The notes under the pieces: generated by a model
What the model was told of the DNA's origin: nothing
What the model saw: only the letters and a program-made list of their open reading frames with translations
Database searches by the model: none
Translations under genes and position numbers: made by a program
Shown here: piece after piece, positions 1 to 53,066 of the stretch
Numbering within the stretch: the stretch's first letter is position 1
Layout of the letters: every line of letters starts with the position of its first letter
Assembly: GCA_964035545.1 (NCBI GenBank)
Contig: OZ037772.1
Location: 1,426,001-1,490,000 of the forward strand
Origin: Bugula neritina
Lineage: Eukaryota > Animalia > Bryozoa
Reading direction: 5' to 3'
Length of the DNA: 64,000 bases

Positions 1-69
1 ACAAGTCTCGCAGTGAATAAACAGTTGACGTACACACAGCCGGGAGTCAGACTGATACTGTACGATATA

Positions 70-3000
70 CCTCAATATCAGAGACGGCAGAGTTGAGAGT
101 ACAGGACCAGTTGATCAGTCGGTTAGCTCTGTAGATCACACCTTTCTCGTGCATTCTGATAAACGCTTCGTTCACCGCTTTCAAAGATTTCTAATAAACA
201 ATTATATATGAGTCATGTGTCAAGTGTGAACTGATTGGAGACCAGGCCTCATGATTAACCAATCATAGAGAGGATAACACGCTGAGTCAGTAAACAGCCG
301 ACACGGCATATAGACTCCACTACTCAAACATAATATATGTATAGAGAGGATAACTCCTCACCTCATCCATAGTGAACGTAGTTCTGTCCCAGTCATAAGA
401 CCCGCCCACTTTCCTCAACTGATGGTAGATTCTGCCTCCTTTTCTATAGAAATTTTATAATAACACTGACCAATCGTTGTGCTGCAAAACTTAGTTATAT
501 TAGCAATTTAAATAATGAGACCAATGATAGAGTGTGATGAAGTAAACCTATATTTAACTTTTCGTATATTCAATTATATATAAGAATTTTATCATATTAA
601 CGCTATTATATTATCTTATATCAAACTGTAGCAACTGCACACCAATAAGATAAAATAAAAACTCAAACCCAAATACTAAGTCGCTATGAAATGCATTTTC
701 AAGATAAAATATTCCCTTACTGGTTCTTCCAGTCCCACACTCGTCTCACAAACTCATCTCGTCCCAAATCGTGTCAAGTTTTATTCTCTTCTCTAGTGCG
801 TTTTTTCTCGACGACAACTTGAGTGGCTATTCCTGCGTGGTCACATCCGGGTACAAACAGTGTCACCTTCCCATTCATCCGGTGCCTGACAATACAACAG
901 AACTGACACCTGCAGACACCTGACAACACAATCATATCAGACACCTGCAGACACCTGACAACGCGAGCATATCAGACACCTGTAGATATTCTGGAAAGGT
1001 GCTGAGAGAAATATCTGTGGTTGAAACAACATCAATATAATAGATGAATGACTTATGCCAACCGGTACTTAACACAAATTTTCTCAGCATTCAAAAAAGA
1101 ATTAACAGGGGGATGTTCATAGCCTGTCTGTGGAATATGTCAGAGTGACTTGGCAAGATGCCGAAATGTCATGTAGTCACCACCAGAGGAATGGTGTCTA
1201 CTGTTACCTGCTATAAGCTACGTACACCACCAGTTTAGTGACTAGGTAAGTACGGAGTTGTCTCATCTATATGAATGAACATCTCACCACCAAACTATCG
1301 CATCCTCAACCGCCCCCGTGAGGGCATGTCCTAGGTGAAGAGTCCCGGTCACATTAGGGGGAGGGATCATGATGATAAACTTCTCTTCAGGTGTGAGTTT
1401 CAGCACATCTCTACCTGTTACAAAGCAACCAATCACATCTCTCTCGGTTACAAAGTAAAAAGCAACCAATCACAGTACCTGTTACAACAGAGTAACAAAT
1501 CACACCTCTACGTGTTAGAAGTAACCAATCATATTATAGACTTTACTATGATGAGAAGTGTACCTTTGAGATTATACTCAGGTTTGAAGAATCCTTCCTT
1601 CTCCCACCAAGAGTACCAGGCAGCTTCCACATAGGACGGGGAGTAAGAATCAGGCATGGGACACGTCGTGTCTAGAATAATAGAAAACTATACAGTATAG
1701 GGGAGCAGCTGTGGTCTAGGGGTTAGAGCGTTTGTCTAGTGAACATGAAGCCATTGTTTGACAAAGGCCATTGGTGACGTTAGGAAGAGCATCCAGTCAT
1801 AATTGCTCCTCTGCCACATCTAAATAAGTCCTTGGCCCTTTCTAACAAAATCCCTTTCCACCAGGAGTCTCTCATAAGGATGGTGACTATACACTGATAT
1901 CTAGATATACTAAGTTGAGACTTGTCTTCTACTGGTCCATACAGTTCAAATGTGATAAACACATGTATAAATACAATAATCTATTCATAGCCCATAGTCT
2001 AACCACCAACAAGGACGAATAAATAAGACGGTGGCCTGACACTACTACTACAACTTATATAACTTATACACAGCAGACTGTTAGGAGTATTTGAATCTGA
2101 GGCTATCCAATGTATGAGTAGGGCAGCCCTAAATGTAGGATATTGGAATACGATGTCTTATTACTTCAGTCTAAAGCAGTTCTTATACCTTCACGATGTT
2201 CAGTCAGAAATTCAATTTTGATGAGTTGTATTTCATTGTAAAAGCCAATCATAAAAATTTTTGCTTTGTGCATGCTTAATCAAATAATTTTAGAGTAACA
2301 ATCAAAGGGAATGATAACTCCTTTAGATATGGGGTATTCATGTTTATAATTACATCGGCTGTCTTTTTCAATTATCACTTTTATGCTGTCAACTTAATTT
2401 ATTACGTTTTCAAAGGGCATCAAATAGTGATTAAGCGAGTTATATTTGAGTATTGCAGAGTGAGCTTCCTTATTAATATGATTTCAACAATTTTAAGTAA
2501 GACTATAGAGGGGCGGGAAACACTGAACTCCTTTAAGTAAAGATAGAAACGCAACTTCAGTTTAAACTGCTTACACACATAACTGTGTGTTCACTACCGA
2601 GCAGTGTACACTGATAAATCAGTGCTTCAACTGAAACTTGTAAGTAAAGGAATGAAGAGCTCAATTGAGTATAAAATGTAGAGAATAATTGAACTGAACC
2701 TTTTTTATGGCCAACTGGTGTGTCCACGTTATACGTTACTACAGCCTTCTCCTTTTTCTCTTTCACTTTTTTCTAGAAAAAAAATCAAATTTGAAGAAAA
2801 TAAAATGGAAATTGTTAGCTACAGATAGACAACTTCCAGGTAAAAGTACAGCCATACAGTCGCAATACGAATATGTAATTCAAGTAACACTTTCATGTAG
2901 AAGTACAACCATAAATATGAATAGAAAGTAACACAAGTATATACATTTAGGAGCAGTAGTGTAGAAATCGAGATAGCCTAGGTTCTTAAATCTTATTATC

Positions 3001-3305
3001 AAATTTTGGTTTAGGCTTTGGGTTGAAATTCTCACAAGAACATAACTTCTTATGCTACATTTCTAATCTAGAACACAGGCTTTCTCAATTTCTCCATTAC
3101 TGCACCTACCTCAGTATATATAGAACCTGTAACTAACTAAACAGACAACTCAGTAGTCAGTCGTGGCAGACTCTGCCTTCTATTTAGCCTGCTTAGCTTG
3201 AAACTTGGCTAGCTTAGCAGCTTTAGCAACTTCTTTCTTCAACTCTTTCTCAGATTTCACCTTGACCTCGCCAGTTGGCGCATCACCAAGGTTCACTTCC
3301 GACAT
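70..3305 (-). pseudogene. VARS1: Valyl-tRNA synthetase 5' part, copy 1 (continues off the left edge); pseudogene
   Basis: Spliced exons read MSEVN..KSEKELKKE; [26 protein letters not shown]; [15 protein letters not shown] (HIGH motif); [16 protein letters not shown]; [13 protein letters not shown]; [22 protein letters not shown]. Lesions relative to copy 2: TAG at 3180-3182 (codon 42), a 4-bp duplication and GT>TT donor loss at the end of exon 1 (about 3148-3163), and TGA at 774-776. Confidence 0.93.
1699..1895 (+). mobile_element. Probable tRNA-derived SINE (V-SINE-like) in a VARS intron; second copy at about 61243-61440
   Basis: Box A-like head TGGTCTAGGGGTTAGAGCG, followed by GGAAGAGCATCCAGTCATAA, which resembles my recollection of the V-SINE central motif GGAAGGGCATCC. 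Confidence 0.4.
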
Positions 3306-4279
3306 GTTCGTTTATTGTGAGACTTTCCTTAAAACACAATCAGCCGGCATGGAACTAATAGATATCTCAATACTAAACATACAAACTACTGACCCAGTAT
3401 AGTAATAGACAGATATCTTAATACTAATAATATAAACTAATGGCTCAATATTGCGTTAGTTATGCGTGGGGGTTCACTGATAAACGCCTATAAACCACAC
3501 GGTCCAATAATGAAAGACTGTGACTTTTCACGAACAGACATCTCATCTCTGATTCTGATGAAAAATCACGAAATTTTCAGACAATCGATACTGCATTTCA
3601 CATAATAATAATAATCATATTGTCATTTGAAAGATTCTGCTAAAATCAAAGTGCCGATGTTAATCACAAGGTCAACCATAAATGACTCAGTCTGATGACT
3701 GACGGTTATGCTTAATGATTAATTAGTAATATGAATAGATTGCAAGTGATCAGCATGATGATGATGATTATTGCTTCTCACCATCAAAGGTCAAACTTTG
3801 TAATTGCAGCTTGAAATGTAAAATTAAATAATATTACTTTTATTTAATCATACAAGTATAACTTACTATCATAACAACATTCAACTTTATGTAGTCATTA
3901 TGAACATGATAGCGGTTTACCTTTTACTTTAGGTGATAATTATACCATTCACGATTATCATTATGTCTACCATTATGATTATCTCAACTTTAACTTATCA
4001 ATTACGATAATTAACCATTTATTTTTAATGATGAAAATTTAAATCATTGAATTACCATTAAAAATGATTTAATTTCACACTTTTATTATCATAACTATGA
4101 AATTATTATTAATAGGCATATTTGATTTTTAGATTACAATAATAATTATCAAATCATGGTATAGAATTAAATAATTATTATAGTTAATATTATTATAAAT
4201 ATAATTAATATAATTGTATTTATTGAAACTAAAATAATAAGGTAAACTAAATGAATTATCGACATGAGTATGAGTATGA

Positions 4280-4670
4280 GTAGGCCACAACTAGAAGGTG
4301 CAGCAGCAATTTGAGATCCCCGTTTGCAATACCTCATCAAAGATATAGAACAGGTGCAAAATAATGCAATCAGATTCATTGCTAAATTGAAAGGCAGAGA
4401 CAGTATCACTGTGGCACGTGACAAACTAAACCTAGAGTCTCTCCCCGACAGACGCTTCAAGCTGAGGCACAAGTTACTGTTGCGACTTCTATCTAATGAG
4501 GGAAATCAGGCATTTCTAACATACTCCTATGAACTGATGAACAGTAAAACCTAAAATACTAGGTTTACTAAGGCATCAAGCAGGGACGATCCCCCAACCA
4601 TTTTTGCAAAATCAGCAGCCTACTACAGCAGCTTCTTTCCAAAAACAGCCCGGGAGCTTAAGTCTATGCT
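4280..4670 (+). mobile_element. Decayed LINE (CR1/L2-group) RT C-terminal fragment
   Basis: Translates as RPQLEGAAAI*DPRLQYLIKDIEQVQNNAIRFI...LNLESLPDRR, matching the RPxLEYAxxVWxP..LExVQxxAxRF motif of this group; contains in-frame stops. Confidence 0.7.
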
Positions 4671-6422
4671 AAATAAGTAGTCAATACACCAGAGTTGTAT
4701 ATGTGCAACATACTGAAAATACTTGCTAGCCTGTAATCGGCAACTGTAGAGGTGTGCCTCTTGCTACATGCTCTAATGCGTGTAAGAGGTAAGAAGACTA
4801 TCAATATGACTATCAATATTAGTAGGAGTACCCAAGTACCAGTAGACATAGTAGCTGTAGAAAGTCTATCCCAATCAGTAACTGTGTCTGTAAGCCGTGA
4901 GGGCTGAGACTATAACTAGGAATATAAAAAACTATAACTTGAGTATAACTAATTGAAGGTGAGTTAACATAAATTAAAAAATAATAAATAAAATTACTAC
5001 AAAATCAAAATGAAATATGCATTATAAATATTTATATTTTTATTTTATAATAATTTTTTAATTTATTTATATCATTTTACTTAGGTTCATCACCTTTCAT
5101 TATGATTAATGAAATTCATAAATCATATTCATAACGATAATGATAATCACTTAAAAAAAATTGATAAACCCATAATGATAATCATAATGATTATATTTAT
5201 TATTATCATTTATCGCTTATCAGTGATAATCATAATCATAATGATAATCTTGATCATAATCAATATGAATATCAATATCATGTTATACTTATTCAATAAT
5301 TAAAATTGATTGATTCTTATTCATATTAATAATGAATAAAAAATTATATTAACACTATAACTTACTTAATTAGAGTATTACTATTAGTATTACTATTACT
5401 ATTAGTATTACTTACAACTTGCTTATGCAAGGGAATTAAATCTTTAAAGCGTAGCATCCTTTTCAAGCAAAATAAGGATAATAAGTTTCGTCAAATTGAG
5501 TTAAAAACTACAACTTATAAGTCACAAGTATAAAGCAACTTATGCTCAGTCATCACTAATCCTAGTGGGTACGGCAAGCATATAGCATAATTTATTTCAC
5601 AATGCGACAAGATTATCTAGACGGTGCGCTTACGCCTCTCATTGTACTTAAGCAATATCCAATTGTACGGTTTTTATGACTTTATAATCTGTTTTTGAGA
5701 AGCAAGGCTAGATAGAAGTTAATGATCGATATTGACTCGCTAAGAGTTTTCATGTAAACCCGCAAACTACAACTTTTAACTTGACCGCAAAGCTGGAAGT
5801 ACGATAAGCGTCGCCGTATTGATTTCAGGCGAATTTTAGTTGATTTCTTTCAAACTGCTGAGAAGTAATATTTGCTTCCATTTTATGTCTGTATCAGCCA
5901 TCAGGGCTATCGCGATACAATTATAAATGTTCTTAATTCAATCAATATTATGAAATAATTAATGTAGGAAATTCAATTTTGACTATATAGAATAATCTCA
6001 ATCTAAATAAGTATTATTTATTTATTGTAACACTTGCACATCGTCTTACTCTTACTCTTAGTCAGATAACATAGTACATACTCATACTGATACTCAATCC
6101 CATACTCAATCTCATACTGAGTCTGATACTCATAGTCATAGTGATGGTCTTTGCCAGATTATTGCTAGATAATTTAAGCTAGTACTTGTACTACTACTAG
6201 TAGTACTAGTACTAGTAGTACTACTACTAGTAGTAGTACTAATAATCACAGTACTAAATACTACTAATAGTAATAGTATTACTATTAGAGTAATACTAAT
6301 ACTAATAGTAATACTACCACTAGTAGTAGCAGTAGTGCTAGTAGTAGTAGGCTACATGATGATGATCATTATGATTATGATTATGAAGATGGTTATTACT
6401 ATAACTATTACGGTATGAGTAT

Positions 6423-6704
6423 TGTAATGGGGCGTGGTTTACGCCTCATGCGTATCCCCCTGCCAATCAGAGAGTGATGGGTAATTATTGGATGAAGCCA
6501 AGCAGAACAATTTATATTAGTTAGTTAGTTAGCGTATACTTGCCGTGATGTAAAGTAACCTAGTACCAATACTTATAGAGATTTTTACGCCATTTATTAC
6601 AGTTTTATAATAAAGTCTTACACACGAAAATATCAGTGAATTGCTTGTGACTAGATGCATATTGCTCACTAGAAGCCCACACAAACATTGTGCTTCGCAC
6701 AACA
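6423..6704 (+). repeat. 5' LTR (about 282 bp)
   Basis: Begins TGT and ends ACA one base before the PBS; contains CCAAT and AATAAA. The left boundary is inferred because no second LTR is available. Confidence 0.75.
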
Positions 6705-6705
6705 G

Positions 6706-6723
6706 TGGTGGCAGCGGTGGGAT
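6706..6723 (+). promoter_or_regulatory. Primer binding site complementary to the tRNA-Leu 3' end
   Basis: TGGTGGCAGCGGTGGGAT is the reverse complement of ATCCCACCGCTGCCACCA, the 3' end of metazoan tRNA-Leu(AAG). Confidence 0.85.
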
Positions 6724-6756
6724 GTTTCTAGCTGAGACAATGAAGAGACGGAGAAT

Positions 6757-7473
6757 ATGACAGAGCACACAACGAAGCACCCGGGAGGTAAGCCAGCCAA
6801 TTTCTTGCATATGGAGGAGGTGTATAGAAGTAAACTGACCGCTCCCACCTTCACGGGTGTAGAAGACATAGAGCAATTCATTGAAGAATTCCACGATGTA
6901 GCAAACGTCGCTCAATGGCCGCCACAAGTAGCCCTCGTCAAGCTGCGGGAAGTATCGACGGAGCGCGCTAGACCGTTTGGACAAGGACGGAGCGTGGCGG
7001 AAATATTCACTACACTACGGGGCCGTTTTGGCATCCCCGCTCTGGAAGCCAGAGCCCGTCTACAGGTGCTACGCCAGGCGGAAAGCACTCCGCTCCGCGA
7101 CCACGTTGCCTTAGTGAAGAGGCTGGCGCTGAGCGCTTCAAGCGACCTGCCAGAAGCACACCGACGGTACTTTACTCTCATTGACTTTATGCAATCCCTA
7201 AAGGATGTGGGCCTTTGCCATCAACTACAGGCAAAGGGAGTGACCACTCTAGAAAGTGCCCTACAAGTCGGAGAAGACTACCTCTGGGCCGAACGGTTAC
7301 ATACCGGGAAACCAGAAAGCACACAAGTCACCGCGGAGATAGCCCAATCACTCGGAGGGAAGATGGGCCAGCTGAGTACCAGGCTGAAACAGATGGCAAA
7401 GACTCTTACTAATGCCGGGCCCCCTAATCAAGGACAAAAGAGAAAGACTACCCGGAGTGAGAGCAACAACTAG
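6757..7473 (+). CDS. gag: Gypsy Gag (238 aa; no CCHC knuckle seen)
   Basis: First ORF after the PBS; PTFTG..IEQFIEEF...W..LRGRFG pattern typical of retrotransposon capsid. Confidence 0.8.
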   Translation: MTEHTTKHPGGKPANFLHMEEVYRSKLTAPTFTGVEDIEQFIEEFHDVANVAQWPPQVALVKLREVSTERARPFGQGRSVAEIFTTLRGRFGIPALEARARLQVLRQAESTPLRDHVALVKRLALSASSDLPEAHRRYFTLIDFMQSLKDVGLCHQLQAKGVTTLESALQVGEDYLWAERLHTGKPESTQVTAEIAQSLGGKMGQLSTRLKQMAKTLTNAGPPNQGQKRKTTRSESNN

Positions 7474-9340
7474 CCAGGGCCTCCCCGCTCCAGAGACCTC
7501 CAACCCAGGAAGAGAGAACAACCCCAGGTATGGCAGAAACCACGACGGACCACCCGCCCTCTTGGGCGACCGGAGCCGTTCGTGCTACCACTCACCAACC
7601 GCTTTAGCCAGCTACCGGAGACGGAGCTGGCCGGCGAGGTCCCTCGGGACATCGGAAGGGAACTAAACACCCCTCTGCCAAAAAAGCGGCGCCCGCCTAC
7701 CACCAAACGGACACCACGCCGTTTGACCGAAGCTACGCATGCTGGGGAAGTAAGGTTGCAGCCACATGGAGAAAGCTACTTCCTGCCCGGGAAGGTAGCC
7801 GGCAAGGCCGTCACGTTCTTGCTGGACTCCGGTTGCAACACAAACCTCCTCAGCAGACGAGTCTTCGATGCCCTCCCTGCCCAGGTGAGGAAGGGATTAG
7901 CTCCCTACACCGGGGAACCTGGCACCCTTGCAGACGGGTCGTGTATCCCTTTCTACGGTGTTGTAGAGCTACCTGGTCGCGTCCGCGACCAGGCCATCCA
8001 AGAGACATTTATCCTCAGCCAGCTGGAAGAGGATGCTATCCTGGGGACGCCGTTCTTGAAACGACACCAGTGCCACATAGACTTCCATAAGTCCGCCATA
8101 CTAATGGCAGGCCGGGAGCTCTCTTGTGTTGACAAGTTCGGTCGCCCCCTGGTCGGGGGCGTGCAGGTGGTCCGTAACTGTACGGTACCCGGCCGCTCCC
8201 GGGCGACCATTCACTGCAGAGTGAATGACCGCCAGCTCTCTGGACTAGGGGTTGTCGAAGGAACGCACCAGAGAATCCAACTCGCCAGCAACTTAAATCG
8301 GCTGACTGACCCGGGGGAGATCTTGGTGCAGTGCGTCAACCCCTTTTCAGAGTCGGTGACACTACCGTCTGGATCCCTATTGGGCCGTTTCCACACGGTC
8401 CAAGAAGGAGACATAGGACCGTCGCTAGGCGAAGCGACGGAGGGTCCCCCAGAGGGCCCGTCTGTACGGCGGGGGACCGTCCCAGAACACGTCCAGGAAC
8501 TATACGAATCAGCCTGCGAAGGCTGTGCGGGCAACAAGGAGCGCCAGGCTATGGCCCAGTTGCTGCGCCAGTATGGGAACGTGTTCAGCAGCGGAGACCA
8601 GGACATGGGCTTAACCAAAGCCATCTGTCACGAGATACCGCTAGCTGCCGGGACTTTGCCTATCCGCCAACCTACCCGGAGACTGGGACCAGAGAAGGAA
8701 AAGGAGGTCAGCCGACAAGTCCGGGATCTTCTGGACCGCGGCATCGTAGAGCCTGCACATAGTGCGTGGAGCTCGCCGGTCGTCCTGGTCCGGAAGAAAG
8801 ACGGCAGTTGGCGGTTCTGTGTGGATTACCGCAAACTTAACAGCGTAACCATACAGGACGCCTACCCTCTACCTCGGATCGATGAATCCCTCGACGCCTT
8901 AGCCGGCAGCAAGTACTTCAGTACTTTAGACTTGCTGAGCGGTTACTGGCAAGTCCCCCTCAGTCCCGACGCCCAGGAAAAAGCGGCGTTCATCACCAGG
9001 GACGGGCTGTGGAAGTGGAAGGTACTGCCCTTCGGGTTAACCTCTGCCCCTGCCACTTTCCAGCGGCTCATGGAACAGGTCCTCAGCGACCTCCACTGGA
9101 AGACGCTGCTCGTCTACCTCGACGACGTCATCGTGATCTCCCCAGACTTCGCGACCCACGTCAGTCGTCTGAGGGAGGTCTTCGAACGACTCCGAGGTGC
9201 CGGTCTCAAGCTTAAACCTTCCAAATGCGCTCTCTTGCAGCCGGAGGTGAAGTACCTGGGGCACGTAGTCGGCCGTAATGGCGTGGCGACGGACCCCGAT
9301 AAGGTGCGGGCTGTGGCCGACTGGGTCACCCCCAGGATTT
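7474..9340 (+). CDS. pol: Pol N-part: aspartic protease, spacer domain, reverse transcriptase
   Basis: FLLDSG protease motif; WSSPVVLVRKKDGSWRFCVDYRKLN, LPFGLTSAPATFQRLM and YLDD. Open in the gag frame directly after the TAG. Confidence 0.96.
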
Positions 9341-12047
9341 GACCGGACTCCGGGCTTTCCTGGGGCTGGTAGGGTATCACAGACAATACATACCAGACTT
9401 TGCGGGAGTTGCACAGCCACTAAATCGGCTCACCGCAAAGGGGGTGGCCTGGCAGTGGACACCAGTCGAACAGAGGGCATTCGACAGTCTCAAGAGCCGC
9501 TTGCTAGAGGCTCCAATTCTGGCCTACCCAGACCCCGCTCTGGAATATATCCTTGACACAGACGCCAGTGACCAGAATGTTGGTGCTGTGCTGTCGCAAG
9601 TGCAAGAGGACCGTGAAGTAGTCGTAGCTTACTACAGCAAATCACTCTCACCTCCAGAGCGCAATTACTGCACCACTCGCAAAGAGTTGTTGGCAGTAAT
9701 CAAGTCAGTGAAACACTTCCGGCCTTATCTCTACGGTAAGCCGTTCCGCTTGCGGACGGACCACGCCTCCTTGATCTGGCTGTGTAAGAGGGCTGAACCG
9801 TCCAGTCAAGTCGCCCGATGGCTTGAAGTCCTAGCCGAGTTTTCATACCGGATCGAACATCGACCCGGTAGGAAGCACGGCAATGCGGATGGACTGAGTC
9901 GGCGACCGGACGAGGGGTGCAAACAGTGTCACAACATCGAGAGAAGGGATGGGAGTCCCCCAAGATCCGAGTTGGCGACACTGGACCACCCTGGAGTGAG
10001 CTACGATTGGGACCAAGGTCAACTCAAGCCAAGGAGCCCTGACCCACCAGAGGCTGTCAACAACCTCCGCGCCAATCCTGTCTTAGCTCGTAATGTCAGA
10101 GAGCTGCAGAAACTCCAGGAGGGCCTCCCTGGGGTGGTAGCCGACGTATATCGAGCTAAACGGGAAGGGCGACGACCCAGCAAGGAACAGCTGCGGCAGG
10201 GGTGCGCCGAGTTACGGTTGTACTGCCAACGCTGGGACTCCCTGCGGATCGGGCCAGATAGTCTGCTGACCATCACCTTGGCCGCCAACCAGGGACACCC
10301 TGGTCGAGAAAGGGTGATCTGCCCAACCGCCATGTGCCAGGAGCTAGTATGGGACACCCACCGACAGGCTCACGCCGGAGTTCGGAGGGTGCTTACCAAG
10401 CTAAGGCTCCGGTGGTATTGGCCCCAAATGGAGCGTGACGTCCGACTAAGGATCAAACAATGCGAAGTCTGCCAGGCCAGCAAGCATGGCCGTCTTCCTG
10501 GAGAGGCGGGACGGCGTAGGCTCTATGCTGGCAGGCCCTGGCAGGTGGTAGCTGTTGACTTGGTCGGACCCATGCCCCTCACCCCCAGAAGAAACAGCTG
10601 GATTCTAGTGTTGACCGACCACTTCACTAGGTGGGCAGACGCACTGGCTATCCCAGACGCGTCTACCCCGACAGTGGCCAGCGCACTAGACCAGCGTGTA
10701 TTCTGCTACTTTGGGTTGCCCGAGCAACTACACTCGGACCAGGGGTCGCAATTCCAGTCTCAACTGATGAGCGACCTCTGCCGCCTCTGGGGAGTAAACC
10801 AAAGTAGGACCACTCCGTACCACCCTCAAGGTAACGGAGATGTCGAACGCAACAACCGGATGCTGGGCGACGCACTCCGCAGTCTACTACTCGGCCGAGG
10901 CCAGGAGGAGTGGGATCTCGTGCTGCCACAGGTTATGAGGGCCTATCGCAGTATGCCCCATACCAGCACAGGCGAGACCCCCAACCTCTTGACCTTCGGT
11001 CGTGAGACACGAGTGCCCGAACACCTCGCCTATCACATTCCAGAACCAGAATACTCCCTCCACGAGTACGCTGGGGAAGTGGTAGAGCGTCTGAGAGTCG
11101 CACACGAAATACTGCGAGAGAAGCAGTGGCAGGTGCGACAGGAAGACGCTGACGAACCACCCCTCTACCAGACCGGAGACTGGGTCTGGATGATCAACTA
11201 CCGTAGGCGTCGAGGACAGGCGGCTAAATTACAGCCTAAGTTTGTAGGACCCTACGTAGTAGTTGAGGTGATGCCCAAGCACACTTACAAGTTGGAGCGG
11301 TCTGGACAGATATCTGTCCAGAATGATGCCCGCTTGAAACCTTATTGGGCTAGCCCAGGTGCGGCCGGGGGTGCCCCCCTATTGTTAGAGCCCAGGAGGC
11401 AGACAACAATGCGCGGGCGGCGGCGGCATAAACCCAATGATGAGTGGGTTGTGCCACGGACAGAAGACTTGGCAAGGCAAGAGAGGCCACCTCCCCCAAC
11501 AGGACCACACCCTCTGCCTCCAAAGCCAAGCCGTCCGACCCCAGAGCTACCACCACCACTTCCGGAAATAAGTATACTTCCGGAAGTGCAAAACCCCCAC
11601 ACGGGAGGGGCTCCGTCCAGAGAGAACAGAGGGGAAGAAAGAATAATAGCTGACGAGAGGCAGGAAGCACCACCAGTGGAGAATAACAACCCCCTGGTGA
11701 GTACACCACCTCCCTCACCAGCTACACCACCTTCCCCGGCGTCTACCACTAGTACATCTCCCCTCCTTGAAAGGGGACAACGTACTAGAAGACCCCCAGC
11801 TTATCTTCAAGATTTCGTATGCGACCGCATTACAAGCGGCAGGTATGAAAGTCCAGCTGGGCGCCGTACGGAAAGACTGGCAGCAAAGCGTGGGAGTTAT
11901 GAACACCACGGAAAAACCAAGTTTGGCAAAAACGGAATAGCGAGTGGAATTACCACTCTCCGGGCACACATTTCCGGTCTCGCAGAACAAACACGCTGCC
12001 CAGCCTTTTCCTACACCGACGCGGTCAAGAGTAGACGTACTTTCTAA
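9339..12047 (+). CDS. pol: Pol C-part: RT thumb, RNase H, integrase (HHCC, DDE, GPY/F) and proline-rich tail; frameshifted from the N-part
   Basis: LDTDASD, RKELLAV, TDHASL and NADGLSR; H..H...CEVC; VDLVGP, SDQG and VERNN; KLQPKFVGPY. One missing G near 9336 would restore PRDLTGLRAFLG. Confidence 0.95.
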   Translation: MTGLRAFLGLVGYHRQYIPDFAGVAQPLNRLTAKGVAWQWTPVEQRAFDSLKSRLLEAPILAYPDPALEYILDTDASDQNVGAVLSQVQEDREVVVAYYSKSLSPPERNYCTTRKELLAVIKSVKHFRPYLYGKPFRLRTDHASLIWLCKRAEPSSQVARWLEVLAEFSYRIEHRPGRKHGNADGLSRRPDEGCKQCHNIERRDGSPPRSELATLDHPGVSYDWDQGQLKPRSPDPPEAVNNLRANPVLARNVRELQKLQEGLPGVVADVYRAKREGRRPSKEQLRQGCAELRLYCQRWDSLRIGPDSLLTITLAANQGHPGRERVICPTAMCQELVWDTHRQAHAGVRRVLTKLRLRWYWPQMERDVRLRIKQCEVCQASKHGRLPGEAGRRRLYAGRPWQVVAVDLVGPMPLTPRRNSWILVLTDHFTRWADALAIPDASTPTVASALDQRVFCYFGLPEQLHSDQGSQFQSQLMSDLCRLWGVNQSRTTPYHPQGNGDVERNNRMLGDALRSLLLGRGQEEWDLVLPQVMRAYRSMPHTSTGETPNLLTFGRETRVPEHLAYHIPEPEYSLHEYAGEVVERLRVAHEILREKQWQVRQEDADEPPLYQTGDWVWMINYRRRRGQAAKLQPKFVGPYVVVEVMPKHTYKLERSGQISVQNDARLKPYWASPGAAGGAPLLLEPRRQTTMRGRRRHKPNDEWVVPRTEDLARQERPPPPTGPHPLPPKPSRPTPELPPPLPEISILPEVQNPHTGGAPSRENRGEERIIADERQEAPPVENNNPLVSTPPPSPATPPSPASTTSTSPLLERGQRTRRPPAYLQDFVCDRITSGRYESPAGRRTERLAAKRGSYEHHGKTKFGKNGIASGITTLRAHISGLAEQTRCPAFSYTDAVKSRRTF

Positions 12048-12082
12048 TCCATCTGCATCCAAGCTTGAACGTCGAGTATGAG

Positions 12083-12090
12083 TATAAATA
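12083..12090 (+). promoter_or_regulatory. Candidate TATA box for ORF3
   Basis: TATAAATA in the 85-bp gap between the pol stop (12047) and the ORF3 ATG (12133). Confidence 0.45.
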
Positions 12091-12132
12091 CCGAGTTCCC
12101 AGGTAAGCTTGCTTAGATCTAACACTCCACTA

Positions 12133-13221
12133 ATGGAAATAGATCTCACCTCAGTCAACGCTGATTTAATCGATCTGATTGAATCACAGTTACTGGAGAC
12201 AGAGTCACACGTGAATGACGACGAGAACAAAGTGATGGCGGATGATCTACTAGATCTGGAGCTTGATAATATGTCTCTCAGTCAGTTTACACGTTCTGAC
12301 ACAGTCTCTCGAGTGCCGTATAAAAAGATGCATGACTCTCAGACTAGTAACAGTCGATTGTCATCAGAATTATGCTGTAAAGATCAAACTCGATCTAACA
12401 ATAATTCTGCTCTTTTAGACGCCACTCGCTCTCCTGACTACGGAGATATGCCACCATTAGAACTGGCCTGGAACAGTGAGACACCTCCTACCTCCCTACC
12501 AGACGTGTTACTTCAGCAACATAGCTGGGTCGCACCAGAGACGGAAAAGCTGATTCAACTACACCGCGGCCATGACGGATGCACCACCTGCAGGCTGTGT
12601 CAGCAGCACTTCTTCACCCATCGCCGTTTGCGTGTCCACGTACCGCAGCACTTCCTAACTACTCTCTGTCCATGTGGTGAATATAGTTACCACAGGGACT
12701 ACATTCTCAGGCACCAGCGTACTATGGACTGCCATGTAGGACACTTGTACGATGTGGACAAATACAACTTCCCCACCTTTCTCAATCTAATCAAACCTTT
12801 CATTAAGGATCTCCCCCGCTTTGAACGGCTCAAACACGGATTCCCCTCACCTCGCATCATCACTCACGGACCGTGTCCAAGACCTCCCAGACATAGGAAA
12901 CCTACCAAGCCGTCTCACTCTCTTCCCGCACAGACCATACCTCGTCCATCCACCCTACCTCGAGTTCTACTTCACCGAGTTGAGATACCCCAAAAACGAC
13001 GTTCCCCCTCCCCCACTCCGATGCAGCCTTCTTCTAAACGACGATGGAGACCCTCCTCCCCGAAACGGCAGGCCCCTACAGCTCGCAACATAAAAGAAGT
13101 CGAGCTCCGTATGTATGAATTAGAAGCCGAGATTCAACGGTTGACTCCCAGAGTTGCTGCGGCCACTTCCGAAATGAAGACCCTTAAAGCTTCCGTGGCC
13201 CTCCTCAAACGGGGCGATTGA
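12133..13221 (+). CDS. Gypsy ORF3: acidic N-terminus, C2H2 and C2HC zinc fingers, Pro/basic region, C-terminal coiled coil (362 aa from the first ATG)
   Basis: CRLCQQHFFTHRRLRVHVPQH = C-x2-C-x12-H-x3-H; CPCGEYSYHRDYILRHQRTMDC = C-x-C-x12-H-x5-C; KRR clusters; heptad pattern in IKEVELRMYELEAEIQRL..MKTLKASVALLK. Confidence 0.8.
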   Translation: MEIDLTSVNADLIDLIESQLLETESHVNDDENKVMADDLLDLELDNMSLSQFTRSDTVSRVPYKKMHDSQTSNSRLSSELCCKDQTRSNNNSALLDATRSPDYGDMPPLELAWNSETPPTSLPDVLLQQHSWVAPETEKLIQLHRGHDGCTTCRLCQQHFFTHRRLRVHVPQHFLTTLCPCGEYSYHRDYILRHQRTMDCHVGHLYDVDKYNFPTFLNLIKPFIKDLPRFERLKHGFPSPRIITHGPCPRPPRHRKPTKPSHSLPAQTIPRPSTLPRVLLHRVEIPQKRRSPSPTPMQPSSKRRWRPSSPKRQAPTARNIKEVELRMYELEAEIQRLTPRVAAATSEMKTLKASVALLKRGD

Positions 13222-13342
13222 GACTGATGGCAGTTGTATCCTTCCCCTCTACTTCTCTGACTATCCACTAATCTGAACAATCACAGGCTTCTTCTTAAGC
13301 TGAGTGAGTTGTTGGTATGACTATTCCCTTTGCTGATTGTAG

Positions 13343-13925
13343 ATGTATAAACTCAGTGACAGTACAAGATGCATGCGAAAGGAAGAATAAGTCAGTCATT
13401 TTATATACAGCTGGTGATAAAGAATTCACAGCAACAGATAGCAGGTCCCAATATTCAGTGCTGCATGATGATTGCAAGGTATCTAAATCTGACCTATATA
13501 CTGTAAATCTGACCTATATACTGTAAATCTGACCTATATAGTGTAAATCTTACCTATATAGTGTAAACCTAACCTATAAAGTGTAAATCTAAGCTATATA
13601 GCATAAATTCGACCTGCAGTTGAACATGATGGCGATAGTTGCATCTTTTTTTGTATTGATATACAATATAGCTTGCCTTTGAGGCTTTTTAACAACTACT
13701 AATGAGTTCAACCTAAAAGCCACTTTGATTTCTGTGCAAGTTTAGAATTTTGAGTTTGCCCTCTGCCATTTTGTAGTATTCCAAATACTATTAGAAGCTC
13801 TGACAGTGATTGAGATTGACACCAAGACCCCCACCCACTTGCCTATTATTGACATTGCTGCTGGTGACATCTGGACCACCCACAAAGAGTTTGGGGTTCA
13901 GCTTGGAGAAGTCTGCTTTTCATAG
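13343..13925 (+). pseudogene. Orphan last two exons of a fibrillar collagen C-propeptide (COLFI), in block 13270-14295 that duplicates 40254-41262
   Basis: Exons read CINSV..KSVILYTAGDKEFTATDSRSQYSVLHDDCK and TVIEIDTKTPTHLPIIDIAAGDI..EFGVQLGEVCFS*, matching the COLFI C-terminus (LPIID...EFG...G.VCF). Confidence 0.85.
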
Positions 13926-14384
13926 ACTCATATCTAACAACAGTTTTATTTGTCTGATTTGTAAGACTGTCCCTGATTAGATAATTAGTGGCCAGTCAGA
14001 GGATGCAATCAATGTTGGTTGGCTGAGACCAGCAGTCTGATTCTTATACAACCTAATTTTTAACTGAAATATTTGATTACTCTAAATAAATTTATCACTT
14101 CTGAGGCACTGATGGTGATTTTTGCACATATAAATTTGAAGGAGTTTAGCTATAGAGTTTATGCTGTTTTTTAATTATTCCACCATAACCTGAGATTGGG
14201 AGTAGTAATTATAGAATGAGATAGGGAGGGTGTAAAGCCCCTCCCTATGACTTTATATATTTAGAAACTGTGGTTTGTTTAGCAATTCTGTTAGTGCGTT
14301 TAACAGACACTAGTTAGACATTCCAGCGTAGCATTACACAAATAATGTAAGTCGATAAAATGAATGAATAAATTTATTATTATA

Positions 14385-14787: not shown

Positions 14788-16001
14788 TTATGTGATGTTG
14801 CCCAGGTAGTGCTTACGTGCATGTCTGCATGTGGATAGAATCTCATTTCTGTTATTAAGGGAAGATTTGCTGGGCTGGTATATTATAAAATATTTTTCCC
14901 ATAGGCAGAGGTTGCACCTTTTAGTGACTTTGTTGTATGAGTTGGTCTTTTTCATAATTTTCCATGTTATGTCAAAATGGGTGTTCTTGTCTTTTAGTTT
15001 CCAGATATATTTGCTGAATTCAGTATGGTTCTTTTTTGTTTTGTTGTTAAAAGTTGATTTGTGGTTATAGAATCTGGTTTTGAATTCTGTTTCTGATGTT
15101 CCCACGTAAGACTGGGGTTGGCTGCCATCTTTGGTTGTAACTGTAGCTTGGTATATGATGCACTTTGTGAGGCATTTTCCATCTAGTGGGCACACTGTGC
15201 TGTTTCTGCAGTTACATTCTCGAGGAGGTTGGTTTGCTGGGTTAAGTAATCTTTTATTGTGGCTGTTGATTATGTTGTTTAAATTTCTGCAGCAGCTGTA
15301 ACTGAGTTTTATGTTGTTTTTGTTGAAAATTTTGTAGAGTTTGTGATCTTTGGGTATTTCTTCCTCCAGGATTTTAAAAAATTGTTTTCCCAGGTTGCTT
15401 GTTACACTTTTGGAGAATGGGGGGTTATACCATGTGATGTTTCGTCGTCTTTCTCTTTTTGGTCTGCTAGTGGTGTGTGTTGGCTGGAATGTTAGGTTAT
15501 GTGTGTATCCACTTTTACTTAGAACTTCTTGGTGTATTTTTGTTGTTTGACTGAAGACTTCTTCGTTAGATGAGAGATTGGAGAGCCTGTTGTTTATGGC
15601 ATGTGGAATGTTTCTTGTGATATGGGGTGGATGGTTGGATTTAGAGTTTACATATAGGATTTCGCTGTTAGGTTTTACATGGGGTTTGTGTGTTCTTTTG
15701 CTGATGTCAAAATTTATATCTAGATAGTTGACGACTTTTTTGTTTACTTCAATGGTGATATTTAGATTATGTTTTTGGAAAATTTTGCAGATTGATTTTT
15801 TAATTCTATCTATATTTTTTGCAGTGTCGTTGATTACTCCTAGGCCGTCATCACGGTATAGACCGAAGGTATTTCCAAACTTCTGGTTGATTTTATATAG
15901 TAAAAATATGCCGACCAGAGTGCAACATTCTGCACCGTCATAGCTGACCATTGTAATGTCAAATAATGAGCCACATTTTTTACTCCAGGGTTGGCCGGAA
16001 T
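14788..16001 (-). CDS. Penelope-like RT C-half plus GIY-YIG endonuclease (truncated and interrupted)
   Basis: Open frame containing YRDDGL, ITWYNPPFS, CNCRNSTVCPLDGKC and CNLCLWEK..CRH. Confidence 0.93.
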
Positions 16002-19000
16002 CACAGCATAGTTAAGGTCATCCCCAGCAAAAAATTATCTCATAATCTAGTCTCAGTTCCTATATGCCAATGCTCTGTGGGCGGCATGCGTATTGCCTAC
16101 TTGTTATAATTTAGCATGAGGTTGAACAATTGCTAACAAACCAACACATTAGCTAGGGCTGCGCCTATATTTCCATTGCAACCATTATCACTATCTATTG
16201 AGCAAGCACGTGATCGTGGCACGCCTCAGCATCACATTATTATTACAACAGGCTAGTGTATGGTTCATTTCATGTACAATATACTTGATGCACAAAAACA
16301 GATGATTTTCATAACTTCTGTTCAGCGAACAATGTAAAACTGTTTCAGATTCTGGAAGCAAGCTAAATGTTTATACTTTTACTCAATATTTATCTATTTT
16401 GCTAGTCTAATGAAATAATGATTGACTATAACTTTTGAAGTGATAATGCAGATATTATTTAAATAACTTAGAATGCAGATGCAACAAATAGTTTAGAGAG
16501 ATGCTCTTTTCTCAAAACATAAAGTTTTCAGGCTAGACTATTTATATATATCTGCTCAATACTATTGACTGACTTTAAACCAATAATACCTTTATTATTA
16601 AAATCATTTTTAGTTGCATTAACTAAAAACTAAAATTGACTTCTTAGTGCTGACTCTTACTATCAGTTACAGACGGCCCAATAGCTTAGCATAGTAAAGA
16701 GACTTGTGTAGGTAAGATAGTTATGTGTGTGCGAATTTATTGGTAGCTGTAAGGGGCAGATATGCAGTATTTTGTGTGACTGCTTTGAGTTTGGGTAAAG
16801 GATTTGATTGCTGCAAGTTTCTAATAAAGCTATAGTACTTGTGTTGTCCCTTTGGTACTAGTACAAGCATTAATCAACACTCATTGAAGTGAGTTGGAAC
16901 TTATATATAAAAGGTTAGAACGTGAGCCTGTGCTATAAATATTCTATTTGCTTCCTGTTGTATACAGTCTAAACTCTGAAGAGTCCAATCAAGCCTACAT
17001 GGCTTCTAGCTGAATGTCCAAATTGACTATGAGCTATATCTTGTTGCTTACCACTGGGCTACTGGGCACTGCTGGCAACTGCTAACGCAGTGTTCACTCA
17101 AGCATGATATTATGGACTTGTATACCAACTCAGAGCTAAGATTATCAACTGTCTTATGTTTCTAAATTTAGCATCTAATAGAAAGAGCTGTGTCTAGTTA
17201 GACTCAGGGATGTAGTGGTACCCATACGGTCCCATACGCCGTATGGCCTAGAAGAAATTAGACTGTTCTAGGCCATACGCCCGTATGGGCATAATATTTT
17301 TGAAAGATGATTAGTGCACAGGATAGTTAGGGCATCCTCACTGAGAATATCATAAATTTCGCTCACAATCTAGTTTAAGTTCTTGTTATAATGTTAATGC
17401 TATGTGGGTGGTATGCGTGTTGCCTATTTGTGATTGTTTAGCCTGAGATTACACTATGAATAGTAAGCAGTCATCAACATTCCATCTTCTTATCTCTAGG
17501 TGTTCACTGAAGCGCGAAGTGCTGTGCATTGGTGATAGCTAAGGGAAAAATATTTCATTTCAGTGTGTAAATCACTAATTTGTAGAAAATCTATGAAGGC
17601 TATTGAAAGGATAAAAAAATTTGCTATGCATAAATTTCTCAGGTTTCCGACAGTGTTTGTTCTATTCCAATACCATACTTTCCTGCTGAGATATTTGGCA
17701 GATTTTGAAAAATAAACTTTTCAGATAAAATTGGCCAAAATGGGTAGTTTTTTGTCCATAACTTTGCAAAAAAAGTATTGAAAACTCGAAAAAGCAGGTG
17801 CTCTGAGGAACAGGAAGATCTACAACATGGTTTTTAAATTTTTATTCTAGCACAATTAGGCAGTGACAGCTAGAAGGTTCACCTTATCTATTTTATGTGG
17901 ACTTGTATTTTGTCAATAAGCAATGGAATTTAAAAAAACCAACATGAAATCCAGAAATAAAATCAAAATGTCTTCAAGAAACAGTACCGGTTGTGTAGGA
18001 GAGGTTAACGGTCTACAGGTACTATGTCCACATTTTGCTCAAAAACCTAGCGTAATTACATTTTAATTATCAATGCAATGAGGTTTTGCAAACTGTACAC
18101 CACCATAAGTAACCGTTTATGTTTGATTGTACTAACATCTGGCTTTATATTTAATCATCTTCTAGGTTAACACATATTAAACCTGTCAAATTTTTTCATT
18201 TAGGGTATGTTTCCTTGACGTGTCTAGTGAAAGTTCAGGGGTTTTATTTTAAAACCAAGCTAACATACTCTTCTTGGGTGTGCTTTATTGTGTGTTAGAA
18301 GGTGTGGTGGTATCTCCTTATGGTTTAGACTAATACTCTAATAAACTCCAATTAGGTTTTTAACCGATTTCTGCTTGCCAATAAGTTATCAATTCAAATT
18401 GCTCTTTATAAATAACAAACACACATTTTCTGATTTGCAATCTGCCTCTCTTCTGATCTATTATTCTTTTTCTGGGCACGTCAGTCTATTAGTTATTGAA
18501 AAAAATCAGGTTGCATTTGGAGAGCACTTGTTACCTGCCCCTATCCTTCCATTTTTTTGAGATCTTCAGCAATTTTTCTGTATAATTTGGACTTGGTGCA
18601 TGTCAGAACAAACCTAACTGCAGTTGAGTAAGACTACATTTAAAATTACAGTCAACAAGTATGGGACAATACTGAATATTTATATAGTTTGCAGCAATGT
18701 TATAGCTGGTATGGTATGAAAATAATAGTGAGGTGCACATTTCAACACAGATTTTTTCAGAAGAATTAAAATTCACAATGGCTTTAAATTGCATAAATTT
18801 GCATCAGAAGAGCCCTGAAGGCTTCGGCGGCCGAGGCGCTGCCCCGGACCCCGCCGGGGGGGGGGGGGGGGGGGGGGGCCTGGGCGGCCCCCTGGACGAC
18901 CCCCTGGACCCCCGGCCTGAGAGTATGGCCTAGAATATTTTTGCCACTACATCCCTGGTTAGACTGACTGACACCATGCTTGCCTGAGTTAAACAGTCAA

Positions 19001-23047: not shown

Positions 23048-23151
23048 ATGGTATAACAACATTTTTCTGGCATGGAAAATCACGGTGCGGTCTGTGTCTG
23101 TTATGGTGGTATGCTCTGCTGCGAAATCAATTGCAGTGTGGAGTAATTTAT

Positions 23152-23549
23152 TAGATGGAAAATGCCTCACAAAGTGCATCATATACCAAGCTACAGTTAC
23201 AACCAAAGATGGCAGCCAACCCCAGTCTTACGTGGGAACATCAGAAACAGAATTCAAAACCAGATTCTATAACCACAAATCAACTTTTAACAACAAAACA
23301 AAAAAGAACCATACTGAATTCAGCAAATATATCTGGAAACTAAAAGACAAGAACACCCATTTTGACATAACATGGAAAATTATGAAAAAGACCAACTCAT
23401 ACAACAAAGTCACTAAAAGGTGCAACCTCTGCCTATGGGAAAAATATTTTATATTATACCAGCCCAGCAAATCTTCCCTTAATAACAGAAATGAGATTCT
23501 ATCCACATGCAGACATGCACGTAAGCACTACCTGGGCAACATCACATAA
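23152..23549 (+). CDS. Inverted duplicate of the Penelope-like GIY-YIG region (partial)
   Basis: Near-identical reverse complement of 14788-15186. Confidence 0.85.
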
Positions 23550-23782
23550 CAATACTAACAATTCTCAACCATAGTACTACCTATTATAAATTACCCTTTC
23601 CATCAAACAGCTAGCTTTTATAGTCTAATCCTTTAGAAAAAGAGCAATTTAATTAATTAATAGATAACACCAAATCCACTACTATGTTTGCATTTCGTTT
23701 TACGTTGTGTTTAGCATGATAGTTTTCTTTATGTAAAAATTTGAATAATCGGTATGCTTCATAGATTTTATTTATTTTTAGT

Positions 23783-23833
23783 CTAACACCTGACGAGTGC
23801 AGTTTACTGTACGAAACTATATAGTCGTGTGAG
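23783..23833 (+). ncRNA. Minimal type I hammerhead ribozyme; predicted cleavage after GUC at 23826
   Basis: Core CTGACGA (23790-23796), stem II GTGCAG/CTGTAC, GAAA, palindromic stem III ACTATATAGT, stem I CTAACAC/GTGTGAG. Confidence 0.9.
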
Positions 23834-23962
23834 ATTTTTTAAATAAAAAAATATATATGTATCATTAACAATCTGAACACACTACATTATATTAGCTCTG
23901 TCACCCGTGATATCGAGCACTTTACTTCGCTAGAACTCCAACTAGATTGACAATCAGCATAC

Positions 23963-52000: not shown

Positions 52001-53066
52001 TTTTAATAATTAACAGTAAACAACTTCCACTCATAAGATATATTATGATATTGTTAGTATTTATCAAGTCACTGATATTATTTTTAGCTAAAAGTTATGT
52101 AATAAAGACTGTAACATGCTGATAGTAGATGTTATATTCTTCATCACATGACTTGTAGCTAATAATAATATTATTGAATAATACTGCCTCCCTACAATAA
52201 GTTTATTTCCAGCTGCAGTAACATGCAGGATGTAAGCACAGGTAAAAGTGTATATTATATTGTATAGGTTTAAGGTGTACTCTGTGTAGTGTGCAGTGAG
52301 CTCTTAGTAAACTCTCTATTCAGTCTTCCTTTCTAAGGGTTCACCTGGTAGTGTAGAGGATAGGGACTCCACACTGCTGAGTGAGTTGGTGCTGCAAGGG
52401 GTTTAAAACCACCTATCAGCATGTCTAGTTAGTATACTATGCAAGTGTTTTACAGTAATTTTAGAGGTGCTCAGTCTAACAACTGTACAGACTGCCAGCT
52501 ACACATGAGTTATGAGTTGTAGTTTGACTTCAGTCTAGTGCTGCTATTGTTTTGGTCATCAGATAATTTAAATGTTAATAATTTGATACTTTTTGACTGC
52601 CATTACTGAGACTATGTAATTTGATGATGGCTGGTAGAGCAGTGTTTGCTGGTGGGACTCAGGTGGCTGTGGTTGGTTCTTGTCAAGTATTTAATATGTG
52701 ATAATGTTGGAGTAGCTGCAGTATTATTAGAAGTAGACACGTGGGTGTGTTCTTGCTCAGAGCCACAGGCTAAGTTTATGGGTCAAGGTCAATATTGTTG
52801 TATAACGAGACACTGTTTTCTATTTGAGTATTTACTTCATGCATGTAACCTGCTTAGTTGCATCTTTAAAGGCAGTCTGTCTGTTTCTCTCAATACACAC
52901 CAACTGATACAATATGATGCTATTATTTACAGGTCAACTGGTGCTTACTGTTCCCAGAGAAAGTCTTGGTGTTAGTGACTGGGTGTTTGACATTGCTGCG
53001 TATAACAGAGACACAGTGTTTTTAGCATGTGTAGATGGTCTGAGGAGATACACAATAAAATACTAA
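46083..53066 (+). CDS. TRIM E3 ligase (RING, B-box1, B-box2, coiled coil, NHL-like beta-propeller), 619 aa, apparently intact
   Basis: Exons 46083-46264, 48501-48681, 48879-49068, 49929-50134, 50570-50849, 51246-51932 and 52933-53066 have GT-AG introns and compatible phases, and sum to 1860 nt. RING CGYC..LPCLHVYCMRC..CAYC; AATAAA at about 53244. Confidence 0.9.
46572..47083. mobile_element. hAT (Charlie-like) MITE in a TRIM intron
   Basis: Perfect 16-bp TIR CAGTGGTTCCCAACCT; TSD degenerate. A related single end lies at about 43025-43040. Confidence 0.85.
49320..49715. mobile_element. Older copy of the same hAT MITE family
   Basis: Termini CAGTGGTGTCTCACCTT and AAGGTTGAGAGCCACTG; flanks CTTTAACT and CTTTAATT; internal similarity to 46572-47083. 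Confidence 0.8.

Follow-up and report, generated by a model that had tools for sequence, protein, structure and literature searches.

Organization of the element

The window analysed here is a stretch of 64,000 nucleotides from Bugula neritina, and all positions are counted from its first letter. A Ty3/Gypsy element spans 6423-13268, in AT-rich and repeat-rich sequence, and carries behind pol, a place often taken by env, a third open reading frame, ORF3 (Table 1). The assignment to Ty3/Gypsy follows the pol order of protease, reverse transcriptase, RNase H, then integrase (PR-RT-RH-IN) found by Pfam, together with a TG...CA 5' LTR and a primer binding site (PBS) after it, whose 18-mer we take to match the 3' end of tRNA-Leu.

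Table 1. Features of the element and of its 3' border in the window. Residue numbers are those of ORF3.
Feature	Position	Strand	Description
5' LTR	6423..6704	+	282 bp, TG...CA, AATAAA at 6609; by sequence
PBS-like 18-mer	6706..6723	+	directly 3' of LTR; by sequence
gag-position ORF	6736..7473	+	245 aa stop to stop; without CCHC knuckle
pol part 1	7474..9342	+	aspartyl protease and reverse transcriptase; Pfam
pol part 2	9303..12047	+	RNase H; integrase with zinc-binding, core and SH3-like domains; a long tail rich in Pro; Pfam
Spacer	12048..12132	+	85 bp, pol stop (12047) to ORF3 ATG; holds TATAAATA at 12083
ORF3	12133..13221	+	transcription-factor-like accessory gene, 362 aa, open for 362 codons
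Acidic/leucine-rich tiles, residues 4-53	12142..12291	+	pass the Kotha-Staller activation-domain rule (predicted)
Invariant block, residues 60-92	12310..12408	+	predicted disordered; holds TATAAAAAG at 12319
Folded core, residues 121-240	12493..12852	+	W/T helix, C2H2 finger, C-x-C...H finger, Y-x-V-D helical cap
Pro-rich basic linker, residues 241-314	12853..13074	+	NLS-like and SP/RS clusters; by sequence
Leucine-zipper-like coiled coil, residues 315-362	13075..13218	+	predicted dimerisation helix
Start of 3' untranslated region	13222..13268	+	element breaks off at 13268, 47 bp past ORF3 stop
Dispersed repeat	13269..14297	+	unrelated to the element, replacing its 3' end; 92% identical to 40253-41265

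In the first part of pol, RVT_1 was matched at E 4.8e-37 and Asp_protease_2 at E 2.7e-4, the latter below the Pfam cut-off; the frame is broken near the end of this part, so that pol is split over two frames, and the second part matches RT_RNaseH, rve, Integrase_H2C2 and SH3_Tf2-1. The gag-position ORF gave no match in the Pfam search. Its TAG stop (7471-7473) is in frame with pol and may be either a readthrough signal or a sign of decay. Between protease and reverse transcriptase lies a beta-rich stretch (about 8160-8400) without a Pfam match, which in our view resembles a degenerate dUTPase-like insert; a region matching it occurs in the distant ORF3 homologue P0317. The observed/expected CpG ratio is 0.86 in ORF3 and 0.76-0.81 in the LTR, gag and pol, against 0.35 elsewhere in the window, ORF3 thus having a ratio like that of the other parts of the element.

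The LTR at 6423-6704 is present as a single copy, with no second LTR found within the 64-kb window. Sequenced contigs track the window to 13266-13268 and then pass into other, shared sequence in 4/4 runs (at most three samples from one study), in two of them for at least 255 letters. Given the repeat junction and the point at which these contigs leave the window, we conclude that the present copy is truncated at 13268 and that its 3' LTR is therefore out of view. A search of metagenome contigs, viral contigs and GTDB found no related locus.

Several other features were observed in the window. An ORF at 14788-16011 on the minus strand (407 aa), without a Pfam match, resembles the reverse transcriptase C-terminus and GIY-YIG end of a Penelope-like element, and has a 741-bp inverted copy, 100% identical, 8 kb away at 23049-23892 (+). 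Positions 1-4471 and 59690-63782 form a dispersed duplication of about 4.4 kb, 96-98% identical, which is either a young repeat or a segmental duplication. A 260-aa ORF at 51224-52006 (+), also without a Pfam match, is by impression probably an exon, from a host or repeat protein of beta-propeller-like type.

ORF3 is a conserved, selected gene

An earlier reading of the same DNA, made from the letters alone (here, the sequence-only reading), had described an uninterrupted and intronless 362-codon sense ORF after the pol stop. The frame is indeed uninterrupted, its ATG lying 85 bp past the stop at 12047, and the absence of introns holds for the DNA level only. The motifs quoted in that reading (DLIDLIESQLLE, DDLLDLELD and DMPPLE) were all recovered in the translation, as were the C2H2 finger, the C-x-C-x12-H-x5-C finger, the basic clusters and the terminal coiled coil. 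The statement that ORF3 is not an Env protein was likewise borne out by hydropathy: the highest mean over 19 residues is 0.51-0.96 in 12/12 full-length ORF3 sequences, hence no transmembrane segment is present, and the N-terminus is acidic (net charge -14 over residues 1-46) and has no hydrophobic core, which argues against a signal peptide. An identity as Env or another fusogen was dropped, since the transmembrane anchor is absent in all 12.

A phmmer search returned 72 ORF3 homologues (70 from JGI, one from ENA and one from Logan) with 44-82% local identity. A profile search extended these to 293 representatives at E ≤ 0.001 and 127 at 1e-10, with detail taken from the best 150 of the 293. 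In the near family, the eight putative metal ligands are kept in 94-100% of rows; in the alignment of near and distant sequences, six are invariant in 40/40 rows, at identities to the window core as low as 20%.

Selection was assessed from the substitution spectrum of 12 full-length sequences (of 73), where substitutions common to at least two rows were set against neutral single-base change as a comparison without a significance test. The mean BLOSUM score in the core was +0.18 against a neutral expectation of -0.54, with -0.33 against -0.70 in the basic linker and -0.12 against -0.28 in the coil. Residues 1-104 had a near-neutral spectrum (-0.35 against -0.21 for residues 1-46; -0.25 against -0.44 for residues 47-104). 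For the 3' third of ORF3, 40 DNA differences were listed and 48 more were unlisted; seven at or behind the stop were dropped, and among the remaining 33 listed differences, 20 are synonymous (expected fraction 0.30, p ~2e-4) and 21 fall at third codon positions. The sequence-only reading had named a dN/dS near 1 as a sign against its interpretation, and both the substitution spectrum and the synonymous bias argue against neutrality. Comparison of the homologues thus confirms ORF3 as a real, selected gene, more than a chance reading frame.

ORF3 belongs to the Gypsy family

The region after the pol stop (12048-12132) had been taken to lie outside pol; this is correct for the present copy and incorrect for others. 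Among 116 homologues of the pol tail, 14 extend in the alignment beyond the pol stop of this copy and enter the spacer, nine of them as far as 12101-12113, about 20-30 bp ahead of the ORF3 ATG. Since the pol of other copies reads into it, the region is a spacer in this copy only.

Linkage of the two genes was further assessed by pairing contigs of exactly the same size, an indirect measure drawn from contig sizes rather than contig sequences. Six of the 72 ORF3 proteins match a pol-tail protein in this way (null mean 1.26, maximum 5, over 400 shifts), and above 3 kb there are five such contigs against 0.3 in shifted controls. Pol-tail and ORF3 identities also co-diverge (Spearman 0.72, exact Mantel 3/720) over the window and five of the six same-size pairs; the pair of size 5764 was left out because its pol protein stops short of the compared tail.

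Several proteins join the two genes directly. P0264 opens with pol-tail sequence (58% over 26 aa; E 8e-6, uncorrected for composition), followed in one frame by the ORF3 N-terminus, and P0258 and P0233 likewise combine pol and ORF3 parts. In P0317 (33% core identity), a Gypsy protease scoring above the Pfam cut-off lies upstream of the double-finger domain; in the core tree P0317 belongs to a remote clade with good support, which suggests that the association between ORF3 and the element is old. P0314 gave a hit to pol without composition correction and carries an integrase-tail-like motif; BLASTP of P0314 against pol with composition correction found nothing, so this protein is a weak lead only. 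A search for longer ORF3 fusions, which is a weak test, was empty. Most of the distant homologues come without a known locus, and some of them are annotated as host genes.

The sequence-only reading had named an unrelated neighbour as the alternative source of ORF3, and this finds no backing: contig pairing, pol read-through and co-divergence all tie ORF3 to Gypsy. Judged by these comparisons, ORF3 is almost certainly a gene of this multi-copy Gypsy family.

Modules and predicted fold of the ORF3 protein

The Kotha-Staller rule for acidic activation domains, as given in the accessible text of PMC10550315, is passed by residues 4-53, and by only 8/1000 shuffles. It is also passed by 0/116 pol tails. 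In near homologues, the rule is passed by 20/33 N-terminal and 0/28 C-terminal parts; in distant homologues, where several rows are near-duplicates, the corresponding figures are 7/28 for N-terminal and 2/34 for C-terminal parts.

The AlphaFold analysis of the finger region that had been proposed earlier was carried out with AlphaFold2 and gave two tandem C2H2-type fingers, confidently modelled at pLDDT above 90. The confident core covers residues 121-240 (pLDDT 91), a long helix extends over 315-361, and the remainder is predicted to be disordered. Finger 1 (C153-x2-C156-x12-H169-x3-H173) has the C2H2 spacing and the conserved F/L positions, and zf-C2H2_4 was weakly matched in 39/73 sequences (E up to 1). 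Finger 2 (C179-x-C181-x12-H194-x5-C200) follows the pattern described in the sequence-only reading throughout the near family, C200 being kept in 61/61, and departs from it in distant members, where C-x-C...H is kept and the fourth ligand varies; its model still overlays on second fingers.

As a pair, the fingers overlay on those of Kaiso, SALL4, ZBTB proteins and CTCF at 2.5-2.9 A over 50-57 residues, although these structural matches are weak, with a best Z of 3.5 and no Foldseek E below 1. The W/T helix and the Y-x-V-D cap had no match to a solved fold. Foldseek against the PDB and viral libraries gave no row at E below 0.001; VIA with the full ORF3 model returned generic helices only. In the ESM Atlas, the feature matches of a bryozoan homologue were C2H2 proteins and clusters without a name, at 0.90-0.91, and the structure rows were uninformative. 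The wide profile matches HIC2 over both fingers (E 2.4e-6), and no Pfam family reached its cut-off for the domain. The domain is an uncatalogued double zinc finger.

DNA-contacting C2H2 fingers carry helix residues of the Asp +2 / Arg +6 type, and C2H2 fingers can also bind RNA and proteins. Under standard finger numbering, which we assume here, finger 1 offers R164/R165 and finger 2 (H-R-D-Y-I-L-R-H) has Asp at +2 and Arg at +6. In the near family, R165 is kept in 61/66, D189 in 58/65 and R193 in 56/65 sequences (86-92%).

The linker has a net charge of +7 to +17 in 12/12 full-length sequences, with basic clusters around residues 288-313. In the C-terminal helix, 12/13 a/d positions are hydrophobic, with Ile, Val or Met prevailing at a and Leu at d, a pattern that favours dimers. 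A heptad was found within the last 90 aa of 24/28 near and 21/34 distant homologues, as compared to 1/116 pol tails. An identity as bZIP, whose signature is a basic helix (N-x7-R/K) directly before the zipper, was considered and dropped: the region ahead of the zipper is Pro/Ser-rich and modelled as disordered, and bZIP_1 matched at E 0.15 in only 2/73 sequences. The transcription-factor-like build of acidic tile, tandem C2H2-type fingers, basic linker and coiled coil is supported by these predictions, and the interpretation given in the sequence-only reading is, as a whole, partly supported.

Invariant block, promoter-like sites and RNA-level signals

Both TATA-like and donor-like sites, as candidate internal-promoter and splicing signals for ORF3, were seen. 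Splice-donor-like sites occur at 6786, 7883 and 12101, the last as CAG|GTAAG within the spacer. The TATA-like TATAAAAAG, coded as P-Y-K, is kept in 4/11 mid-distance and 0/26 far members. The block around it (residues 60-92) exceeds the finger core in summed contig depth, a depth that does not equal copy number, and is possibly a second internal promoter or a short motif. Behind it, a Met within residues 103-113 is found in 58/61 homologues, with a cluster at 106-111. Alignments begin at or before residue 10 in 35/72 homologues and reach the C-terminus in 26/72, hence breakage is no greater at the N-terminus than elsewhere in the protein. Internal env promoters have been described for the Oikopleura Tor elements in the accessible text of PMC4402516.

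The candidate TATAAATA at 12083 is doubtful as a conserved promoter and appears copy-specific, since the pol C-ends of other copies, compared by eye, read other residues there. Repeats in the LTR are limited to short TTAG ones and a single 8-mer that recurs, and no motif in common with the ORF3 upstream region was found beyond chance. The plus strand of the element (6420-13170) folds more stably than dinucleotide shuffles over much of its extent (mean z -1.2, 21/67 windows below -2). The 5' end of ORF3 reached z -3.97, but a special RNA structure there was rejected, as these 21/67 windows along the element are also below -2. The Rfam search gave no match.

Proposed function and alternative explanations

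ORF3 is probably a nuclear nucleic-acid-binding regulator. The more specific reading, that it is a dimeric, sequence-specific DNA-binding activator of the element's own transcription, is drawn by analogy to Tas and stands at about an even chance. In such a scheme, a subgenomic RNA produced from an internal promoter or by splicing would yield the ORF3 protein, the basic linker is predicted to direct it to the nucleus and the C-terminal zipper to join two copies. The two fingers of each monomer would read a short repeated site in the LTR or in the internal promoter, and the acidic tile would recruit coactivators, boosting the element's own promoter in a positive feedback.

A different role at the RNA level, that of a Rev- or CERV-like factor exporting or packaging unspliced genomic RNA, is unlikely but has several features on its side. 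The fingers and the RS/SP-rich linker would act on RNA, perhaps standing in for the nucleocapsid knuckle that gag lacks; the donor-like sites and the basic SP/RS linker are present in the sequence, and, according to the accessible text of PMC10309623, CERV of Cer1 is required for gRNA export and has a Cys-rich loop along with a leucine zipper and an NLS. The same text gives CERV a C4-type loop and a zipper shared with Gag, unlike ORF3. The acidic activation-type tile, the DNA-type helix residues and the DNA-bound C2H2 pairs as best structural neighbours fit DNA better, and the RNA of the element is stable throughout, with no peak near ORF3.

The high CpG ratio of the element (0.76-0.86 against 0.35 in the flank) would suit a VANC-like anti-silencing factor acting on its own family's DNA, where it would remove or block methylation or heterochromatin instead of bringing in the transcription machinery itself; the accessible text of PMC6719617 provides the precedent, and the methyl-CpG readers Kaiso and ZBTB38 are among the top structural rows. 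We consider this quite unlikely, as the Z-scores of Kaiso and ZBTB38 tie with those of generic C2H2 pairs, the LTR shows no evident tandem array of motifs as in VANC targets, no chromatin-enzyme domain was found in ORF3, and a high CpG content may merely mean a young age.

The invariant block with TATAAAAAG and the Met at 103-113 prompted a third alternative, in which ORF3, or a short isoform starting in the Met cluster 106-111 from a promoter within codons 60-92, is a dimeric, non-activating self-repressor for copy-number control. Besides the frequency of that Met, the near-neutral amino-acid spectrum and the higher summed depth of the block would agree with it. Against this, the N-terminus is retained as often as the C-terminus or more so, the P-Y-K motif is missing in 26/26 far members and the acidic tiles are conserved; repression as the role of ORF3 is very unlikely.

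That ORF3 is a captured host gene or the fragment of an unrelated neighbour, a passenger without a role for the element, is highly improbable and largely refuted by the linkage, the co-divergence with pol, the synonymous bias and the protease-fused distant member, even though annotated bryozoan genes share the domain and no 3' LTR lies in the window.

Returning to the activator reading, we tentatively propose, and hold somewhat less probable than not, that the element represents an old and diversified env-less lineage of invertebrate Gypsy elements with a factor of its own (double-finger domain, acidic activation domain and zipper), perhaps with a short repressor isoform, and exchanged with hosts. 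ORF3 would then possibly be the retrotransposon counterpart of Tas/Tax, and the short isoform would possibly come from a second internal promoter.

Bryozoan relatives and significance

The double-finger domain also occurs, in one or two copies, in annotated genes of Watersipora and Bugula (P0191, P0333, P0295, P0334 and P0337). Two annotated bryozoan genes have it twice in tandem, two Bugula genes with the domain have consecutive locus tags, and the annotated bryozoan genes are not grouped together in the core tree. The annotated bryozoan genes include XP_067940964, XP_067944745, KAF6040922 and KAF6040923. These genes are possibly misannotated elements, domesticated copies or the source of the domain.

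Although below the Pfam cut-off, the domain has about 300 representatives at 50% clustering, annotated bryozoan genes included, and this makes it a candidate route between transposons and host zinc-finger regulators, in one direction or the other. LTR retrotransposons are usually taken to depend on host transcription factors, and complex retroviruses such as the foamy viruses are characterised by encoding DNA-binding transactivators of their own. If the activator reading is true, a regulatory layer of self-encoded factors also arose outside Retroviridae, and the element would supply an orthogonal activator-promoter pair and allow one to test directly how a transposon drives or limits its own expression.

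Comparison with known systems

Non-env third ORFs after pol, as found here, are known from LTR retrotransposons of bdelloid rotifers, where the accessible text of PMC5408684 describes GDSL esterases, DEDDy exonucleases or membrane proteins, unlike the zinc-finger ORF3; the words 'zinc' and 'finger' are absent from its main text. The word 'zinc' is also absent from the main text of two annelid LTR surveys (PMC8220671 and PMC8556966) and of an errantivirus survey (PMC13524379), and in the accessible text of the Troyka paper (PMC12440569) it appears only for the Gag knuckle. In the literature covered, with Repbase/GyDB and most subscription journals outside its scope, no Gypsy element was found whose ORF3 is of the C2H2 transcription-factor-like type. 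This suggests that, among the known non-env third ORFs of animal Gypsy elements, the C2H2 transcription-factor-like type is new, a prior annotation being possible.

The accessory proteins of two other Gypsy elements are closer in kind, again as described in the accessible texts. CERV of the Caenorhabditis elegans element Cer1 (PMC10309623) shares with ORF3 a zipper, an NLS and a Cys-rich part, and is nuclear, as is predicted for ORF3. CERV is made from a spliced RNA and serves gRNA export, whereas ORF3 stands as a reading frame of its own and has C2H2-type fingers in tandem as well as an acidic tile; the C4-type Cys loop and the Gag-shared zipper of CERV are absent in ORF3. The Drosophila 412/MDG1 elements are env-less, and 412 carries sORF1 and sORF2 (PMC11952523); sORF1 is a nuclear protein with a predicted DNA-binding-type fold, nuclear localization being predicted for ORF3. 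It differs in having a helix-turn-helix fold of about 110 aa without zinc fingers and in lying upstream of gag.

VANC21 and VANC6 of the Arabidopsis VANDAL transposons, as presented in the accessible text of PMC6719617, resemble the anti-silencing alternative for ORF3 in being transposon-encoded factors acting on their own family's DNA; they belong to a plant DNA transposon and rely on tandem motif arrays. Among cellular proteins, the tandem C2H2 factors (HIC2, ZBTB/Kaiso and SALL4) share with ORF3 the spacing of finger 1, the two-finger geometry and, for HIC2, the profile match. ORF3 differs from them in having only two fingers, the second with C-x-C, set between the W/T helix and the Y-x-V-D cap.

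Tas comes from an accessory gene that lies in the 3' part of its retroelement. No Tas/Tax-type homology was found for the full ORF3 model in the Foldseek viral library (no E below 0.001), and an acidic activation domain as in Tas/Tax is predicted in ORF3 by the sequence rule. As described in the accessible text of PMC517496, Tas/Bel1 of foamy virus is a nuclear DNA-binding transactivator of the acidic class acting on the LTR and on an internal promoter, which is what we propose for ORF3; Tas serves an enveloped retrovirus and its acidic domain is C-terminal, whereas that of ORF3 is N-terminal, ahead of C2H2-type fingers and a zipper, in an element without env.
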